Assembly: GCA_964518885.1 (NCBI GenBank)
Contig: CAZFHW010000001.1
Span: 685-64,684 of the forward strand
DNA from: an uncultured Parvibaculum sp.
Lineage (GTDB): Bacteria > Pseudomonadota > Alphaproteobacteria > Parvibaculales > Parvibaculaceae
Direction of reading: 5' to 3'
Length of the DNA stretch: 64,000 nt
The notes under the pieces were generated by a model. That model did not search any database. It saw only the letters and a program-made list of their open reading frames with translations, and was not told the DNA's origin. A program made the translations under genes and the position numbers. How positions within the stretch are numbered: position 1 is the stretch's first letter; every line of letters begins with the position of its first letter. Of this stretch, positions 31,604 through 58,309 are shown piece by piece.

Positions 31604-33586
31604 GTGGCGCTTTGGTCGAGGCTGATGTCAATCATCGAATTTTTCAGCAGAAGGCGGGCGGGCATCATCCTGGGCGTGACTGTCTTTGTTCTGGGGGGAG
31701 CCCTGGGGTGGGGGTTGTACCATCAACGAGACACTCAGGACCTCGCCAGGACCGTCAAACCCATCGATTCGCCTGCAACCGCGCGCTTGGACCGGGATCT
31801 GGCACAAATTCTGGAATTGCTCGATGGCTTGGCCCCTTCGGAGCAAGCCGCACGAGCAGATAATCCACCTTGTGAGCGATGTTCTTATCTGGCGCAGGTT
31901 GCGACAGGCTATCGGGACAAGGCGACGGTTGCCCTCGCTGATATTCGGAAGCTGGAGGCAGCGCTGTCGCGCCACACAGGTGTCTCTCATTCGGTCGAAC
32001 GGACATCGCTGGAGCGACAGCTTGCGGCGCGCCAGAACGCTGCTGGGAGGGCTGTGGAGGGGCTCCGGAGTTTTGCTGACGGCGCAACCGCCTGCGAAAG
32101 CGAGCGCCTGTGTACACGTGATGATCTGGTACGCACCGCCCAGACCCAGCCCTTGGATTGCGTTCGGGATGGAGAAGAAATCCGAAACGCCGCAGCACGC
32201 ATAGGTCGTCTGGCGGACCACGTGATCGCCCAAGCACGCCTGTGCCAGAGAACCGCATGTCCGGTAATGAATTGTGATCGCTCGGCCGCTCTAGCGGCTG
32301 ACCTGCAGATTGTCGAAATGTCACTGGCTGAACTCGCTGGCGGTAGAACCGCCCTGCCAGGAGGCCGACAAACTGTGCCGAGCACGGGCCTTGCCACGGT
32401 TCTGGGAGGTGTTGAGCGGGCATTGGCGCGTTTGGCGCTTGATTCTGCGGAGACCACTTTATCCCCGCAGGCCCTGTCTGCCCGGGCCCGCGACATGCGG
32501 GAGGGACTCAAGGCCTGGCTGGAGCAAACCGAACATCGCAGAGGAGTTCGCAGAGACAGCTGGCGCGTAAGTGCCTTGATCGGTGAGATCGATGTGGCGG
32601 CGGAATGGGCCCTTGGAGGTGAAACAGCGGAATACAGACGGGCATATTTTGCGGCACTGACCCGCGCCATGTTGAGTGCTGCCCGTCTGGATGCGGCTCT
32701 GTCGACGACGGAAGAAGACCAACCCGTGACCGCGGTCGGGGGGCCCGTTTGTGGTGCATCAGAATTGGCAAATGCCTACCTGAAAGCGGGACACGCCATT
32801 GCTGCACTGGGGTTTTGCCGTGCCAAATCAGCCTGCACACCGTCGGCAACGACAGCAATATTGGGAAGGTCATTTCGGTCGGCGAGTGACCATGAAATCG
32901 GAGCGCTGGCCGCTGTGACGGGAGCACTTCCGCTGGGAGAAGAACGCCACGCAGATGCCCGGGTTGTCCAGTCGTCGCCTGTCAGCATCGCGTTCGAGAG
33001 GATCGACGTCTTGGCCGGGGAAATTGTCTCCGTTTCCGCAGACACCTCGCCGTCGGCCTGTCTCATTGCTGATGGTGCCATTGGCCTCGTGCGCGCAGGT
33101 GCACCGCTGGGAACTGAAGAGCGCTACCGTCTGGAGGGCGGCACAAGGTCGGAGGTATCACTGGCAGCACCGACAGCTCCAGGTCGTTATGTCATACGGG
33201 TCTTTGCCTCACCCGGTCGGGGCGGACAGCTGCTGAGTGAGCACGGTTTCACGGTCCAGGCGTTGAAAGCAGGGTGTGAAGGTTTTACAGGCCTGTGGGA
33301 CACATCATTTGGACCCCTTCGACTGGTTGACCGCGATGGACGGGTGACCGGGAGTTACCGACGCGGTGGCAATGCCCCTCTGCCGGGCCTGGTCGTCGGC
33401 TCGCGGACGGGAACGGGAACCTCGCAGGTGTTTGAAGGTACCTGGCTTTCTGAGCTGGGGCGCGGGGGTACACGATTGCGCCTGACAAATAATGGAACCA
33501 GATTCAGGGGCACCTGGGGGGTCACGCCTAACCGGTCTACCGGTGGCGGGGCTTGGAACGGCGAGTGTCTGGGGACGGCACCCTAG
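31604..33586 (+). CDS. Large Cys-rich hypothetical membrane-anchored protein
   Basis: 660 aa; N-terminal TM helix; 14 Cys; Ig-like APTAPGRYVIRVF segment; C-terminal FTGLWDTSFG...GTW...GTW avidin-like barrel pattern. Confidence 0.65.
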   Translation: MALWSRLMSIIEFFSRRRAGIILGVTVFVLGGALGWGLYHQRDTQDLARTVKPIDSPATARLDRDLAQILELLDGLAPSEQAARADNPPCERCSYLAQVATGYRDKATVALADIRKLEAALSRHTGVSHSVERTSLERQLAARQNAAGRAVEGLRSFADGATACESERLCTRDDLVRTAQTQPLDCVRDGEEIRNAAARIGRLADHVIAQARLCQRTACPVMNCDRSAALAADLQIVEMSLAELAGGRTALPGGRQTVPSTGLATVLGGVERALARLALDSAETTLSPQALSARARDMREGLKAWLEQTEHRRGVRRDSWRVSALIGEIDVAAEWALGGETAEYRRAYFAALTRAMLSAARLDAALSTTEEDQPVTAVGGPVCGASELANAYLKAGHAIAALGFCRAKSACTPSATTAILGRSFRSASDHEIGALAAVTGALPLGEERHADARVVQSSPVSIAFERIDVLAGEIVSVSADTSPSACLIADGAIGLVRAGAPLGTEERYRLEGGTRSEVSLAAPTAPGRYVIRVFASPGRGGQLLSEHGFTVQALKAGCEGFTGLWDTSFGPLRLVDRDGRVTGSYRRGGNAPLPGLVVGSRTGTGTSQVFEGTWLSELGRGGTRLRLTNNGTRFRGTWGVTPNRSTGGGAWNGECLGTAP

Positions 33587-33845
33587 AAACTGCCAGCAGG
33601 CCAGGGATATGCGACAGAATAGCAGCGTGGCGAAGAGGGCAATACGCCAAGCTTTCCTGCTGGCGAAGGAAGCGCTCAGACTTGAGGTGCCTTTTGAGTG
33701 CTGTGATCATGTTTCGGCGATCGGGACACCCCGAAGAAGAGCCAGGTTTTAGCCCCACACCGCTTCGCACGAAATGTCGAAACGCCCTGCGCCCGGCTCT
33801 GGCAAGAGCGTCCTCATTCTGCCCAATAGGTAATTTTCGCACCAT
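33537..33845 (-). CDS. GafB/DUF6477-like protein (putative)
   Basis: ARAGRRAFR...ITALKRHLKSERF.....AY..LRH pattern resembles DUF6477; lies directly downstream of the RogA-like gene; no clear RBS; overlaps the 660-aa ORF by 50 nt. Confidence 0.55.
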   Translation of the reverse strand: MVRKLPIGQNEDALARAGRRAFRHFVRSGVGLKPGSSSGCPDRRNMITALKRHLKSERFLRQQESLAYCPLRHAAILSHIPGLLAVSRVPSPDTRRSKPRHR

Positions 33846-33883
33846 GTGCCGCAGTTTGGACGTGAAACTTGGCAGGGGAATAA

Positions 33884-33898
33884 TTGCGTTTTACGCAA
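33884..33898. promoter_or_regulatory. Palindrome TTGCGT-TTT-ACGCAA (operator candidate 1)
   Basis: Perfect 6-3-6 inverted repeat in the 63-bp gap between the rogA-like stop and the gafB-like start. Confidence 0.6.
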
Positions 33899-33908
33899 AA
33901 ACAGCCGA

Positions 33909-34481
33909 TCAAAAATAGCGAATAGACATGATAATGGGCGCGCACCACAACAGACGATCTATGTACCTTTCCTTGGAACCGGGTTGGAGCGGCACCAGGC
34001 AGTACCGCTTGGAATTTTTTGGACCACGAACAAGACGCCGCAACAAGACGGTGCCGTCTTTAAGTCCAACGAGGCAATCGCGGCCAAATCCCTGCTCCAG
34101 TTTTTCGTTTTCGAAACGCGCACCAACCAGTAACTCTCCTGATCGAAAGGGGCCGTGATCCTGTGTAAGACGGACGGCTACCGGACGGACGGCCGGAACG
34201 CGCAAGACAAAACCATCAGTATTTTCAACGGATTTAGACGATACAGTCCCATCTGCTTCGACCCGACCCAGCATCTCAATCCGCTCTGGAGAAGGTTCGT
34301 CAATCAGGTCACTCATCGGAACTTGCAAGATCGTTGCGAGTGGTTGTAGCCAATCCACCGATATCCTAATTCCCTCGGTTTCAAGCCGCGAAATGGTCGC
34401 TGCTGTGGTCCCGAGCCTGTCGGCGAGGTCAGTCTGCGTGATCCCCATCTGTCGCCGGTAGTGTCGAATTCTGTTTTTCAC
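33909..34481 (-). CDS. rogA: XRE-family repressor with S24-like C-terminus (RogA-like GTA repressor)
   Basis: NRIRHYRRQMGITQTDLADRLGTTAATISRLE HTH; divergent from the gafY/gafZ-like genes as in Caulobacter. Confidence 0.7.
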   Translation of the reverse strand: MKNRIRHYRRQMGITQTDLADRLGTTAATISRLETEGIRISVDWLQPLATILQVPMSDLIDEPSPERIEMLGRVEADGTVSSKSVENTDGFVLRVPAVRPVAVRLTQDHGPFRSGELLVGARFENEKLEQGFGRDCLVGLKDGTVLLRRLVRGPKNSKRYCLVPLQPGSKERYIDRLLWCAPIIMSIRYF

Positions 34482-34534
34482 ATCTGCCGTCTTTCATTTG
34501 CACCACATTCAGGTGTTTCATTATATTTTTGTAC

Positions 34535-34549
34535 TTACGTAAAACGCAA
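34535..34549. promoter_or_regulatory. Palindrome TTACGT-AAA-ACGCAA (operator candidate 2)
   Basis: Reverse complement TTGCGTTTTACGTAA is 14/15 identical to the site at 33884; in the rogA/gafY divergent spacer. Confidence 0.6.
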
Positions 34550-34642
34550 AATTTACTCCCGGGTTCTTCGATGGGGCTTAAGGTGTTTTTATACCTGATT
34601 GAAAAAAGCGGCTCGGTATTTGTCAGCCACCTAGGAGGTTAG

Positions 34643-35077
34643 ATGCTTGAATTGCCCTCAAATGCTTTATGCGAACGCGACGAAAAACTAACACGACAAG
34701 GTATTTTGACCACAAAGGCGGCGGCACGCCGAGCGGCGGTCTGGTCCCAACAAGTCGCGGAAATCAAGCTGACCTGTGATGTTGTTGCGAGAGTTTACAA
34801 TATTTTGCCTGCAGCGCTTTATTCGCCTACACGCGGCGAGGCATATGTCGCCCATGCTCGCCAGTTGGCTATGTATCTTGCTCATGTGACGTTCGGCCTC
34901 AGCCTTGGGGCGGTAGGGCGTCATTTTAGACGAGACAGAACCACCGCAGCCTATGGTTGCCGTCAGGTTGAAGATCGGCGCGATAATCCCAGTTTTGATT
35001 TCATGCTGGACCGTCTGGAACAAGCCCTAGCGATTTTGTCTGCCGTCCGCTTTGGAACGTCTCAGAAAATGCAATAG
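34643..35077 (+). CDS. gafY: DnaA domain IV-like HTH protein (GafY-like GTA activator)
   Basis: TRGEAYVAHARQLAMYLAHV..GLSL..VGRHFRRDRTTAAYGCRQVEDRRD; RBS AGGAGG. Confidence 0.8.
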   Translation: MLELPSNALCERDEKLTRQGILTTKAAARRAAVWSQQVAEIKLTCDVVARVYNILPAALYSPTRGEAYVAHARQLAMYLAHVTFGLSLGAVGRHFRRDRTTAAYGCRQVEDRRDNPSFDFMLDRLEQALAILSAVRFGTSQKMQ

Positions 35078-35088
35078 GGGAATGGGCT

Positions 35089-35973
35089 ATGGAAATCGCT
35101 GCGGGAGAACTACGTCGGGAGGGTTTGCGGCTTTTTCGACGTCTGAGGGAGCCGGGGCATTATGTCCGGCATTTGGATGACGGTAAGCCGCAAGAGGCAT
35201 CAGGGGCCTTGTTTGGTCCCCGTAATAGCTGGCGCCATCCGGTCTTGAGGGTAGATATGAGGATCGTTAGTGCGTTGCACAGGACGGATCTCTTGCGGCG
35301 CGAAGTAGCCTATGTGCCAGCGCAGGGCTTAGAAAGCGTTCCAGAATGTTACCTCGTCAGCGCAGCTGGTGAAGCGTGGTGGCGCAGGCAGGCTGGAGGC
35401 ACCGAGCCTTTTCGAGCCCAGCACCAGCTTTTAGGCGAGTGCGTGATTGAGGAGCCGGGGCGGGGCGTGGTGCGGCGCCAGGTCAATTTGGGGGAAACCC
35501 CCTTAGGGTGGCTCCGCAGACGCAAAGGGCCAGATGGTCGCCCCTTTTTGTCAGACATTGAAATGGAAGCGGGGGAACGATTGAGGCGCGACTATACGCT
35601 GGCCGCTCTCGGTTCCCGTGTTACTGCCGATTGGTCTGCGATGGCCGCTCACGTCGATCAAAGTAGATCTGGGCCTTCATCTGGGGGCGACGTATCTCTC
35701 GCGGCATTGGATGCCCGGCGGCGGGTAGAGCGCGCACTGGCCAGTGTGGGGCCAGGATTGGGCGATGTGCTTTTAGAGACGTGCTGCTATTTGTCAGGTC
35801 TGGAACAGGCGGAACAATTGCTTGGCTGGCCACAGCGGTCAGCAAAAATCGTGCTGAAAATTGCTCTGGCGCGCATTGCCATCCACTATGGCCTCGGGCT
35901 CACGGGGACACCAAAACAGGGGCTCCATGTCTGGCGGATGGGGGGAGACGGCAAACATCAGCACGGGAGGTGA
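35089..35973 (+). CDS. gafZ: DUF6456 protein (GafZ-like, GafA C-terminal homologue)
   Basis: ETPLGWLRRRKGPDGRPFL...AGERLRRDY, LGDVLLETCCYLSGLE.AE..LGWPQRSAKIVLKIAL. Confidence 0.85.
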   Translation: MEIAAGELRREGLRLFRRLREPGHYVRHLDDGKPQEASGALFGPRNSWRHPVLRVDMRIVSALHRTDLLRREVAYVPAQGLESVPECYLVSAAGEAWWRRQAGGTEPFRAQHQLLGECVIEEPGRGVVRRQVNLGETPLGWLRRRKGPDGRPFLSDIEMEAGERLRRDYTLAALGSRVTADWSAMAAHVDQSRSGPSSGGDVSLAALDARRRVERALASVGPGLGDVLLETCCYLSGLEQAEQLLGWPQRSAKIVLKIALARIAIHYGLGLTGTPKQGLHVWRMGGDGKHQHGR

Positions 35974-57686: not shown

Positions 57687-58145
57687 ATGGAAGAGAAGCC
57701 CTTTTGGCAGACAAAGAGCCTCAGCGAGATGACCCGCCAGGAGTGGGAGTCGCTGTGCGACGGCTGTGCAAAATGTTGCCTCATCAAACTGGAAGATGAA
57801 GACACGGGCGATCTGGAATACACCGACATCGCGTGCAACCTGCTGGACTGCGAGAACTGCCGCTGCACGGATTATCCCAACCGTGCCACCAAGGTGCCCG
57901 ACTGTGTTGAACTCACCCCGAAAAACGTGCACCAGCTTACCTGGATGCCATCGACCTGCGCTTACCGTCTGCTCGCGGAAGGCAAGGACCTGCCCTGGTG
58001 GCACCCGCTGGTGAGCGGTGAGGAGGACACCGTTCATCTGGCTGGCATCTCCGTGCGCGGACGCGTGTTGCTCGAGGATGATGTGGACATGACCGACATT
58101 GAAAGCCGCATCGTAAGCTGGCCGGAACAACCACTGGCAGATTGA
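57687..58145 (+). CDS. ycgN: YcgN/UPF0260 cysteine-cluster protein
   Basis: [16 protein letters not shown]...[20 protein letters not shown]. Confidence 0.92.
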
Positions 58146-58309
58146 GCACACAATAAATTTCAGTCGCGACCTTGACATCGCAACGATTGAAACCATCTAT
58201 TTACTCATCTCCAGAAGTGCGCCCCCAGGATAGCGTCCCCGGGACACCATCCCGCAAGCACCTCTTCCGAAGATAATCGAGACACTCCGACATTTTGAAA
58301 GCGAGCCTC

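Follow-up and report, generated by a model that had tools for sequence, protein, structure and literature searches.

GTA production kills the producer cell, and the wiring of the on/off decision is a central question. To our knowledge, Caulobacter (RogA-GafYZ) and Rhodobacter (GafA) are so far the only bacteria whose GTA switch has been dissected. In Caulobacter the gafYZ promoter is bound by the repressor RogA, for which ChIP showed just two targets (Gozzi et al. 2022, PMC9632790). Its operator is GGAA-N4-TTCC, and it was not found on the GTA structural promoter (PMC9632790). Along with that study, our comparisons with RogA and GafY/GafZ draw on Tran & Le 2024 (PMC11150451). For RcGTA of Rhodobacter capsulatus, Rcc01866 is needed for particle maturation and release (Hynes et al. 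2016, PMC5026251).

The locus and its closest relatives

The locus described here lies in a 64-kb window, which is the whole stretch of DNA that was analysed. We find it rather likely that two palindromes on either side of a CI-like XRE repressor gene are the operator pair of that repressor, controlling its own gene, gafYZ and a small gene. Repressor binding, repression rather than activation, the promoter positions and looping are what we infer. The features are as follows:

33537..33845, minus strand: small conserved gene, 102 aa, three predicted helices
33853..33858, minus strand: inferred -10 of the small-gene promoter (P_small), CAAACT, 7 nt before the ATG; CATGCT/TATGCT conserved there in congeners
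33876..33883, minus strand: P_small box TTATTCCC, next to site 1 without a gap and pointing at the small gene; proposed -35 region
33884-33898, no strand assigned: site 1, putative downstream operator, TTGCGTTTTACGCAA (TTGCGT-TTT-ACGCAA)
33909..34481, minus strand: repressor gene, 190 aa, GTG start; XRE/HTH_3 N-domain and lambda-CI/LexA-like C-domain
34520..34525, minus strand: inferred -10 of the repressor promoter, TATAAT; the matching -35 would fall within site 2
34535-34549, no strand assigned: site 2, putative intergenic operator, TTACGTAAAACGCAA (TTACGT-AAA-ACGCAA), between the divergent repressor and gafY genes
34553..34560, plus strand: P_gafY box TTACTCCC, 3 nt beyond site 2 and pointing at gafY; proposed -35 region
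34578..34583, plus strand: inferred P_gafY -10, TTAAGG (TTATAT in congeners), 17 nt after ACTCCC
34643..35077, plus strand: gafY-like gene, 144 aa, DnaA domain-IV-type HTH (Pfam Bac_DnaA_C, 3.6e-15)
35089..35973, plus strand: gafZ-like gene, 294 aa (Pfam DUF6456, 4e-51)

The N-domain of the repressor matches Pfam HTH_3 (8e-11), with PDB profile matches to SinR and the 434 repressor, and the AlphaFold model (pLDDT 86.6) gave lambda CI, 186 CI and the LexA C-domain as best Foldseek matches. Pfam S24 was not detected in the protein, and a PDB sequence search with the C-domain gave no match. As no invariant Ser or Lys of a catalytic dyad was found in the C-domain when 20 family members were aligned, we rejected a self-cleaving S24 type (LexA, lambda CI; Ser-Lys dyad, Ala-Gly site), and RecA-driven self-cleavage is unlikely. 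An Arg in the LRRL motif of the C-domain is almost invariant in the family alignment, and by our reading of that alignment it would be the counterpart of the LexA Lys position. The recognition helix, TTAATxSRLE, is invariant across the family, and a phage database search with the repressor gave matches at the HTH level only.

The repressor gene is divergent from gafYZ in 30/30 family loci and also in 10 loci from other alphaproteobacterial families; full-length homologues linked to gafYZ were found in about 10 such families. GafY aligns to E. coli DnaA domain IV (PDB 1J1V), its gene lies directly upstream of gafZ, and DUF6456 recurs as the C-terminal part of a GafA-like fusion protein in locus L106.

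Much of this resembles the Caulobacter system: an N-terminal HTH with a LexA/CI-like C-domain devoid of cleavage residues, the split activators GafY (DnaA-type HTH) and GafZ (DUF6456) as targets (putative here), inverted-repeat sites, and a tiny regulon, with two ChIP peaks there and two predicted sites here. Unlike in Caulobacter, the operator would be TTRCRT-N3-AYGYAA rather than GGAA-N4-TTCC, the repressor gene is a divergent neighbour of gafYZ rather than unlinked, a second putative operator lies behind the repressor gene and before a DUF6477-related gene, and congeners have a third putative operator on the GTA structural promoter. The name RogA, given in the initial annotation, thus fits the architecture and fits neither the motif nor the position of the gene. 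Likened on shared architecture only, the locus may be regarded as a lineage-specific version of the known RogA-GafYZ switch.

Compared with the phage systems, the likeness lies in the predicted fold (lambda CI with its OR/OL operators, 186 CI), in the HTH match to the 434 repressor and in the A/T-rich central bases, as in 434 operators. As in lambda, the repressor gene faces a divergent lytic-type activator and has putative operators on both sides, an arrangement that in lambda permits looping and cooperative repression. Unlike lambda, there is one palindrome on each side and no triple operator, no Cro is found and GafYZ is the partner, the catalytic Ser/Lys are missing, and the module belongs to the chromosome, is passed on vertically and lies in no prophage. 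The Caulobacter proteins CdxB, RtrA and RtrB (gafYZ, lypABC; PMC13236601, PMC10688885) are likewise XRE repressors at the gafYZ promoter and GTA accessory loci, but they are short, with a small dimerisation domain and many sites, in contrast to the CI fold and two local sites here.

Sequence and conservation of the palindromes

Two 15-mers flanking the repressor gene and identical at 14/15 positions had been described in the initial annotation, and the sequence check bore out their coordinates, placement and identity. Site 1, a 6-3-6 palindrome with perfectly matching arms, follows the repressor stop codon by 10 nt and precedes the ATG of the minus-strand 102-aa ORF by 38 nt. Site 2 precedes the repressor start by 53 nt and gafY by 93 nt, and a single arm change (A for G, position 3) accounts for its 14/15 match to site 1 on the opposite strand. 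The sites are spaced 651 bp, on either side of the repressor gene.

In the window, TTRCGTNNNACGCAA with at most one mismatch was found at three places (6 strand matches) against 0.41 expected, and 6 strand matches were reached in 0/100 shuffles; the third place (43901) falls within long ORFs and has a GC-rich spacer. The genome-wide scan suggested with the initial annotation was run on the whole 3.15-Mb assembly (91.6% complete), and TTRCGT-N3-ACGYAA occurred at sites 1 and 2 only, both beside the XRE gene. When the arms alone were scored across the genome (12 positions), the two sites were the sole 0-mismatch match and one of ten 1-mismatch matches, and among all these matches only sites 1 and 2 have an all-A/T spacer.

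The palindromes also held up in the suggested phylogenetic footprinting, being present at fixed offsets in 14-15 of 15 congeneric Parvibaculaceae genomes, counts that are not independent because the genomes are related. For site 2 the count is 15/15, at 53-58 nt before the start of the repressor gene; its column identity is 0.92 against 0.65 in the flanks, and no block of the spacer is more conserved. Site 1 was found in 14/15, 8-10 nt past the repressor stop and with at least 9/12 arm matches (column identity 0.87, flanks 0.60). The best 15-column windows of both non-coding regions were the palindromes themselves, and the family consensus of the conserved sites is TTRCRT-N3-AYGYAA. Changes that break the symmetry of the arms (TTGCAT...ACGCAA) are no rarer in congeners than symmetric ones, and the commonest congener form of site 1 is TTACGT-AAT-CCGYAA; the conserved feature is the sequence and not the pairing of the arms.

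Two genomes with gafYZ and no repressor homologue, G017 and G035, have kept the TTATCCCC box and the -10, and the palindrome is eroded in G017 and replaced by GC-rich sequence in G035. The expectation that a 6-3-6 repeat suits a dimeric XRE reader is supported by these comparisons, since the sites are unique, footprinted, and unrecognisable where the repressor gene is missing. In one congener, G010 (locus L008), both the small gene and its box have disappeared and site 1 is kept, hence control of the small gene cannot be its sole role. In Parvibaculum and other families the counterpart of the palindrome is found downstream of the box, between it and the -10, and overlaps the latter.

A third position of the motif was found at the GTA structural promoter, where the 6-3-6 motif (TTGCAG-AAA-ATGCAA and variants) recurs in 12/17 congeners, 7-8 nt ahead of the GTA cluster's CTTGAM -35. 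Sites 1 and 2 and the GTA-promoter site are all present in the cultured relative 'Alpha proteobacterium Mf 1.05b.01' (BAOK01000001.1). The GTA-promoter copy is lost in the clade of the present genome. That the palindrome defines a GTA regulon motif, as the initial annotation proposed, gains support from these 12/17 congeners, because the same motif stands at their structural promoter, while the genome at hand has the two local sites only. As to a wider regulon, a genus-wide pattern scan showed no excess over a reversed-pattern control once the local sites and a tRNA match were removed. That match, TTGCATGGCATGCAA, occurs once per genome but within a tRNA gene, and was rejected as a regulon member. 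The 8-mer ATTTACTC, common to the P_gafY box and the GTA promoter of the window (58199-58206), was likewise set aside as chance, as the spacer that holds it, between two CATCT repeats, is not conserved and congeners lack the 8-mer.

Inferred promoters and the small downstream gene

Just downstream of each palindrome, and oriented, lies a box with the family-wide form TTATCCCC (TTAYYCCC), which is replaced by exact TTATCCACA in two other families. At P_small the layout is ATTCCC, 17 nt, CAAACT, 7 nt, ATG, and a -10 only 7 nt before the ATG would imply a leaderless-type mRNA. A consensus promoter scan did not call the inferred elements, whose matches to the sigma-70 consensus are weak. If the promoters are placed correctly, the palindrome centre is at about -47 to -52 at P_gafY, P_small and the congener P_GTA, and at roughly -47 to -50 when P_gafY and P_small are taken alone.

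The box was considered as part of the operator and rejected, as it is kept in the genomes that lack the repressor. Nor does it seem to be a general GafY box on GTA structural promoters: none was found within 1.3 kb upstream of terL in 10 Parvibaculum loci (L125-L133, L136), it is absent from genus-g1 GTA promoters, and there was one occurrence in G017 (genus g2). As a candidate, the GafY box survives for the gafY and small-gene promoters only.

The small gene overlaps a convergent 660-aa gene by 50 nt, and orthologues were found in 14/15 congeners with codon-position differences of 0.45/0.45/0.64. The initial annotation had called it gafB-like, a name we dropped because no GTA gene of that name was found in the literature searched, GTA papers included; in a full-text search "gafB" denotes GAF-domain B of cyclases, phosphodiesterases and the like. 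None of 14 orthologous proteins (0/14) matched DUF6477 (Pfam PF20083, 25-bit cut-off) even at E<=1, a six-frame genome search for DUF6477 gave no match, hhalign against DUF6477 with the single sequence was negative, and a fold search with the small protein gave no significant match. With a multi-sequence profile, hhalign matched DUF6477 at a probability of 78.8% (E 1.7e-5, 37 columns), and a second comparison at 87.5% (E 3.6e-6, 45 columns), both in the C-terminal half only. Two intermediates, P0007 and P0011, match both profiles, with DUF6477 scores of 15.9 and 18.2 bits that are below threshold. Further, the equivalent place behind the repressor gene is taken in family f64 by a bona fide DUF6477 gene, and an operator-like site and TTATCCYC follow the repressor stop before it. 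We suggest the small gene to be only a remote relative of DUF6477 (Rcc01866-like).

The gafA-rcc01866 locus (PMC5026251) resembles the present one in having a small DUF6477 gene beside the GTA activator gene. It differs in that the small gene here is below the Pfam threshold, lies behind the repressor gene and has its own putative operator; in L106, the one fused-GafA locus examined, a divergent DUF6477 gene accompanies the fused GafA with no repressor gene between.

Alternative readings and a possible switch

A chance likeness of two short AT-rich palindromes might be thought of, as short palindromes are common in intergenic DNA, but uniqueness in the genome and positional conservation over 15 genomes effectively refute it, and we give it next to no weight. 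A more specific reading is that site 1 acts mainly as an RNA/DNA hairpin, for instance by terminating the repressor transcript or stabilising its 3' end, as it begins 10 nt after the stop codon and is bracketed by longer inverted repeats (predicted folds of -10 to -15 kcal/mol) in loci L007, L009, L011, L013 and L014. Its 6-bp stem is however weak (-8.2 kcal/mol when folded within 48 nt of the window) and lacks a U-tract, several congeners show almost no predicted structure (-1.7 to -3.7 kcal/mol), the arms are unpaired in most of them (TTACGT/CCGYAA) and yet the sequence is kept, and it is met again in front of genes, at site 2 and the GTA promoter. The scanner did not call an intrinsic terminator, the folds are weak and inconsistent and the pairing is not conserved, so we rejected site 1 as such; Rfam covariance models gave no match at E<=1 in 33300-34800. 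The hairpin reading seems to us very improbable.

Only slightly less improbable is that the sites belong to another transcription factor, for instance a global regulator, with the XRE gene an incidental neighbour. TTG...CAA palindromes do look CRP/FNR-like at first sight, but CRP/FNR boxes are TTG-N8-CAA and the spacing here is TTG-N9-CAA. Moreover, the genome has two sites only, both at the XRE gene, the genus-wide scan shows no excess elsewhere, and the palindrome is unrecognisable where the XRE gene is absent; GafY, as a monomeric DnaA-type binder, is an unlikely reader of a two-fold symmetric site. The strongest competitor, which we still hold to be unlikely, is that the XRE/CI-like protein binds the sites but as an activator or dual regulator (lambda CI at PRM; class I). 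The palindrome centre, immediately upstream of the -35, is a position also used by activators, and the poor fit of the -35 regions (AYCCCC) to sigma-70 is what activator-dependent promoters would show. Against this, the equivalent palindrome overlaps the -10 in Parvibaculum and other families, which is a classical repressing position, and genomes without the protein keep the box, the -10 and gafYZ. RogA, the sole characterised protein of such architecture in this circuit, is a repressor (PMC9632790).

Returning to the operator pair of a CI-like repressor, we propose that a repressor dimer would read the half-site TTRCRT through its HTH with the invariant recognition helix, the A/T spacer probably serving DNA shape rather than contacts. 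Site 2 would overlap the -35 of the repressor promoter and, at 5 bp, adjoin the -35 region (TTACTCCC) from which gafY-gafZ would be read divergently, so that one bound dimer would control its own gene and also keep the GTA activators silent. Site 1 adjoins TTATTCCC before the small DUF6477-related gene, and a repressor bound there would keep that gene off too. Sites at all three promoters thus stand behind the co-repression of gafYZ, repressor and small gene claimed at first; the sign of the control is by analogy only, as the palindrome at P_gafY and P_small lies just upstream of the -35 and not over the core promoter. The lambda-CI fold of the C-domain and the 651-bp spacing of sites that flank the gene suggest that dimers may pair and loop the DNA between sites 1 and 2, as in lambda OL-OR.

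More tentatively, and with more doubt than belief, we speculate that two-input promoters (the repressor palindrome and a DnaA-box look-alike read by GafY) along with a 651-bp loop, closed through the CI-fold domain, might form a bistable GTA switch derived from a prophage immunity region. Both at gafYZ and at the DUF6477-like gene, auto-activation by GafY would then vie with repressor binding at adjacent sites. The HTH of GafY is presumably a DnaA domain-IV paralogue and keeps most of the presumed base-contacting positions. In most congeners the same repressor would also gate the structural GTA promoter directly, a layer lost in this clade.

The palindromes provide a candidate operator motif for CI-like GTA repressors of a second branch. 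This branch is widespread, with linkage to gafYZ in Parvibaculaceae and in about 10 more of the alphaproteobacterial families sampled. The operator-flanked layout, which resembles phage immunity, suggests a GTA switch descended from a prophage cI region, and a DUF6477-type maturation gene would be tied into the same putative control as gafYZ. We know of no GafY binding motif defined so far, and the invariant DnaA-box-like element beside the operators is a candidate for it. Direct repressor control of the structural promoter, apparently gained or lost between sister species, would be a natural experiment on the layers of GTA repression.

Palindromes flanking the repressor gene

Both 15-mers described in the initial annotation were confirmed by direct inspection of the sequence. 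They lie on either side of a repressor gene, among the features listed here.

Features of the locus (positions in the window)
33884-33898: site 1, TTGCGTTTTACGCAA, a perfect 6-3-6 palindrome
34535-34549: site 2, TTACGTAAAACGCAA, one arm base different
34481..33909, minus strand: repressor gene, 190 aa, HTH_3 domain, between sites 1 and 2
Divergent from the repressor: gafY-like gene (Bac_DnaA_C)
Divergent from the repressor: gafZ-like gene (DUF6456)
33845..33537, minus strand: small gene, 102 aa
33883..33876, minus strand: box at site 1, TTATTCCC
34553-34560, plus strand: box at site 2, TTACTCCC
Putative small-gene promoter (P_small): ATTCCC, 17 nt, CAAACT, 7 nt, ATG at 33845
Putative gafY promoter (P_gafY): ACTCCC, 17 nt, TTAAGG
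Putative repressor promoter (P_rep): TATAAT at 34525..34520, -35 inside site 2

In the window the pattern with at most one mismatch gave 6 strand matches vs 0.41 expected, a number reached by 0/100 shuffles, and sites 1 and 2 are the sole occurrences of TTRCGT-N3-ACGYAA in the 3.15-Mb assembly. When the 12 arm positions were scored across the assembly, the two sites made up the single match without mismatch and one of the ten with one mismatch, and they alone among these have an A/T spacer. In a genus-wide scan the one recurrent extra match, TTGCATGGCATGCAA, lies inside a tRNA gene and was rejected as a regulon site. The tRNA-gene sequence TTGCATGCCATGCAA (G000 contig C99:7326-7340), present once per genome of the genus, has nothing to do with the operator.

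The source organism belongs to an uncultured-rich genus of the Parvibaculaceae that includes 'Alpha proteobacterium Mf 1.05b.01'. The repressor-gafYZ arrangement was present in 30/30 family loci fetched. Phylogenetic footprinting, proposed earlier as a check, supported the motif; all 15 loci from the window's genus have site 2, at 53-58 nt before the start of the repressor gene, and 14/15 have site 1, counted as present at 9 or more of 12 arm positions, 8-10 nt past the repressor stop codon. The centres are 647-655 bp apart. The palindromes are the top-conserved 15-column windows of the MAFFT alignments, with column identities of 0.92 (site 2) and 0.87 (site 1) vs 0.65 and 0.60, respectively, in the remaining non-coding columns.

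Across the palindrome variants it is the sequence class TTRCRT that is kept, not pairing; symmetric (TTGCAT-AAA-ATGCAA) and asymmetric (TTGCAT-AAA-ACGCAA) forms are both present in congeners, and in most of them site 1 is TTACGT-AAT-CCGYAA, which makes a hairpin impossible. As predicted RNA folds 3' of the repressor stop codon are also weak or inconsistent, with no terminator called by the scanner at site 1 and no Rfam match at the locus, we favour protein-binding sites, on this comparative evidence, rather than RNA or DNA structure. A longer, sequence-variable inverted repeat surrounds site 1 and its box in the loci L007, L009, L011, L013 and L014 (e.g. GAGAACCGG...CCGGTTCTT), with predicted folds of -10 to -15 kcal/mol in the first 48 nt past the repressor stop; it is absent from the window and several other genomes, and might act as a terminator or add a further layer of control.

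Promoter context and the link to the repressor

A TTAYYCCC box follows each palindrome on the strand of the gene faced. It reads TTATCCCC in essentially all Parvibaculum loci and coincides exactly with the E. coli DnaA-box consensus, TTATCCACA, in the repressor-gafY spacer of two other families (L141, L147). A gap of exactly 17 nt separates A-T-C-C-C-C from TAAATT or TAATTT in Parvibaculum, which puts the box in the -35 region; the palindrome lies within the spacer and over the -10 there, and immediately upstream of the box in the window's genus. From such sequence features we infer P_small, P_gafY and P_rep to be promoters; none of them was called by the consensus promoter scanner.

The AlphaFold model of the repressor (pLDDT 86.6) matches lambda CI, 186 CI and LexA C-domains. 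Aligning 20 family members showed no invariant Ser or Lys in the C-domain and an invariant recognition helix, TTAATxSRLE. This is also the architecture reported for Caulobacter RogA, whose HTH is joined to a LexA/CI-like domain without cleavage residues (PMC9632790).

Two independent lines of sequence comparison appear to tie the palindromes to the repressor and the GTA, whose head cluster (terminase, portal) begins ~24 kb downstream. One is a third occurrence of the 6-3-6 motif (TTGCAG-AAA-ATGCAA, TTGCAT-AAT-ATGCAA or TTGCGT-ATT-ATGCAA), which in 12 of the 17 congeners (loci L089-L105) precedes by 7-8 nt a CTTGAM -35-like element before the first GTA cluster gene; in G013 (L100) this promoter has two tandem operator-plus-promoter units. 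The motif is absent there from the window genome and its two nearest relatives, G016 and G014, which all have ACAATAAATTTCAG at the palindrome position (window 58130-58170), and from the divergent members G008 and G011, which have a different inverted repeat, ATGATGA...TCATCAT. The suggested GTA regulon motif is supported by the GTA promoter of the 12 congeners; in the window genome it is confined to sites 1 and 2, and the genus-wide scan found no excess elsewhere over a reversed-pattern control. Within window 58171-58212 (and in L092-L103) a sequence closely resembling the sigma-32 (RpoH) consensus, CTTGAA-N13-17-CCCCATNT, precedes a direct repeat, CCATCT-N7-CATCTCC.

The other line comes from genomes that lack the repressor. 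In both G017 (genus g2) and G035 (a Parvibaculum) gafY-gafZ are present, but no homologue of the repressor was found at E<=1e-10. The adjacent TTATCCCC box and the -10 are kept in both; GC-rich sequence stands in place of the palindromic half-sites in G035, and in G017 they are eroded. Further, the module is uncoupled from the particle genes in some relatives: the three genomes of genus g3 have repressor-gafYZ and gave no match to the GTA large terminase at E<=1e-30, and genus g2 and G035 have gafYZ and terminase without a repressor homologue.

The small gene behind site 1

Judged by its conservation the 102-aa ORF is a genuine gene; orthologues exist in 14/15 congeners, in most of which the gene starts 62-63 nt past the repressor stop, and substitutions fall mainly on the third position of codons (0.45/0.45/0.64 across the whole gene, 0.35/0.28/0.67 within its conserved block). 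It shares 50 nt (33537-33586) with the 3' end of a convergent gene for a 660-aa membrane protein; in G010, which has no small gene, 165 nt separate the end of the 660-aa homologue from the repressor stop. The name GafB, given to it initially, was not found in the literature searched.

The small gene has no Pfam match, a six-frame search of the genome gave no match to DUF6477 (PF20083), and comparison with a single DUF6477 protein by hhalign was negative. A protein passing the DUF6477 cut-off (28 bits) holds the same position in another alphaproteobacterial family (f64), behind the repressor gene and preceded by an operator-like TTACGT-AAG-TCGTAA and TTATCCCC. Profile-profile comparison with a four-member DUF6477 alignment gave a probability of 78.8% (E 1.7e-5), and 87.5% (E 3.6e-6) with an enlarged query, over the C-terminal 37-45 columns only; the intermediates P0007 and P0011, found with the small-gene profile, match DUF6477 below threshold. 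Based on these the small gene is read as a probable divergent DUF6477 relative.

We take R. capsulatus Rcc01866 to be a DUF6477 member, from the DUF6477 gene adjoining a fused gafA-like gene in L106, a locus of another family. There the fused GafA-like gene (HTH and DUF6456, 381 aa) is divergent from a bona fide DUF6477 gene, the same layout as rcc01865-rcc01866; neither a TTATCC box nor a repressor-type palindrome was seen by eye in its spacer. Rcc01866 is a maturation and release factor (PMC5026251).

In G010 the small gene and box are gone and site 1 is still there, which argues for an additional, small-gene-independent role of site 1, such as looping or roadblock.

A probable variant of the RogA-GafYZ switch

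From sequence, the palindromes most likely serve the adjacent CI-like repressor as paired operators. Through site 2 the repressor would control its own gene and keep gafYZ silent, through site 1 it would keep the DUF6477-like gene silent, and its CI-fold C-domain may pair both dimers across 651 bp. The upstream position of the palindromes at the window-genus promoters leaves room for activation or dual control, which seems rather unlikely to us; the RogA analogy, the repressing site position in Parvibaculum and the promoter core persisting without the protein all point to repression.

In alignment with E. coli DnaA domain IV, GafY has RDRTTAAY against RDHTTVLH, and it presumably keeps most of the base-contacting positions (residue roles from the 1J1V complex). 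Given this likeness, and as GafY of Caulobacter binds at its own promoter, the DnaA-box-like elements next to the operators could serve GafY auto-activation; the absence of the box from the GTA structural promoters examined counts against this.

The nearest known system is Caulobacter RogA-GafYZ, where RogA ChIP peaks were at gafYZ and CCNA_02002 only (PMC9632790). Unlike in Caulobacter, the repressor and gafYZ genes are linked here, operators lie on both sides of the repressor gene, and congeners have an operator on the structural promoter. The RogA label given initially fits the shared repressor architecture, but the operator differs from the GGAA-N4-TTCC of RogA. In the ten loci examined, drawn from roughly eight other families, full-length repressor homologues have a similar recognition helix (TTPQTxSRLE) and linkage to gafY and/or gafZ, hence the repressor-gafYZ module is, by homology, widespread. 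We read the present locus as a probable variant of the known RogA-GafYZ switch with a different operator sequence.
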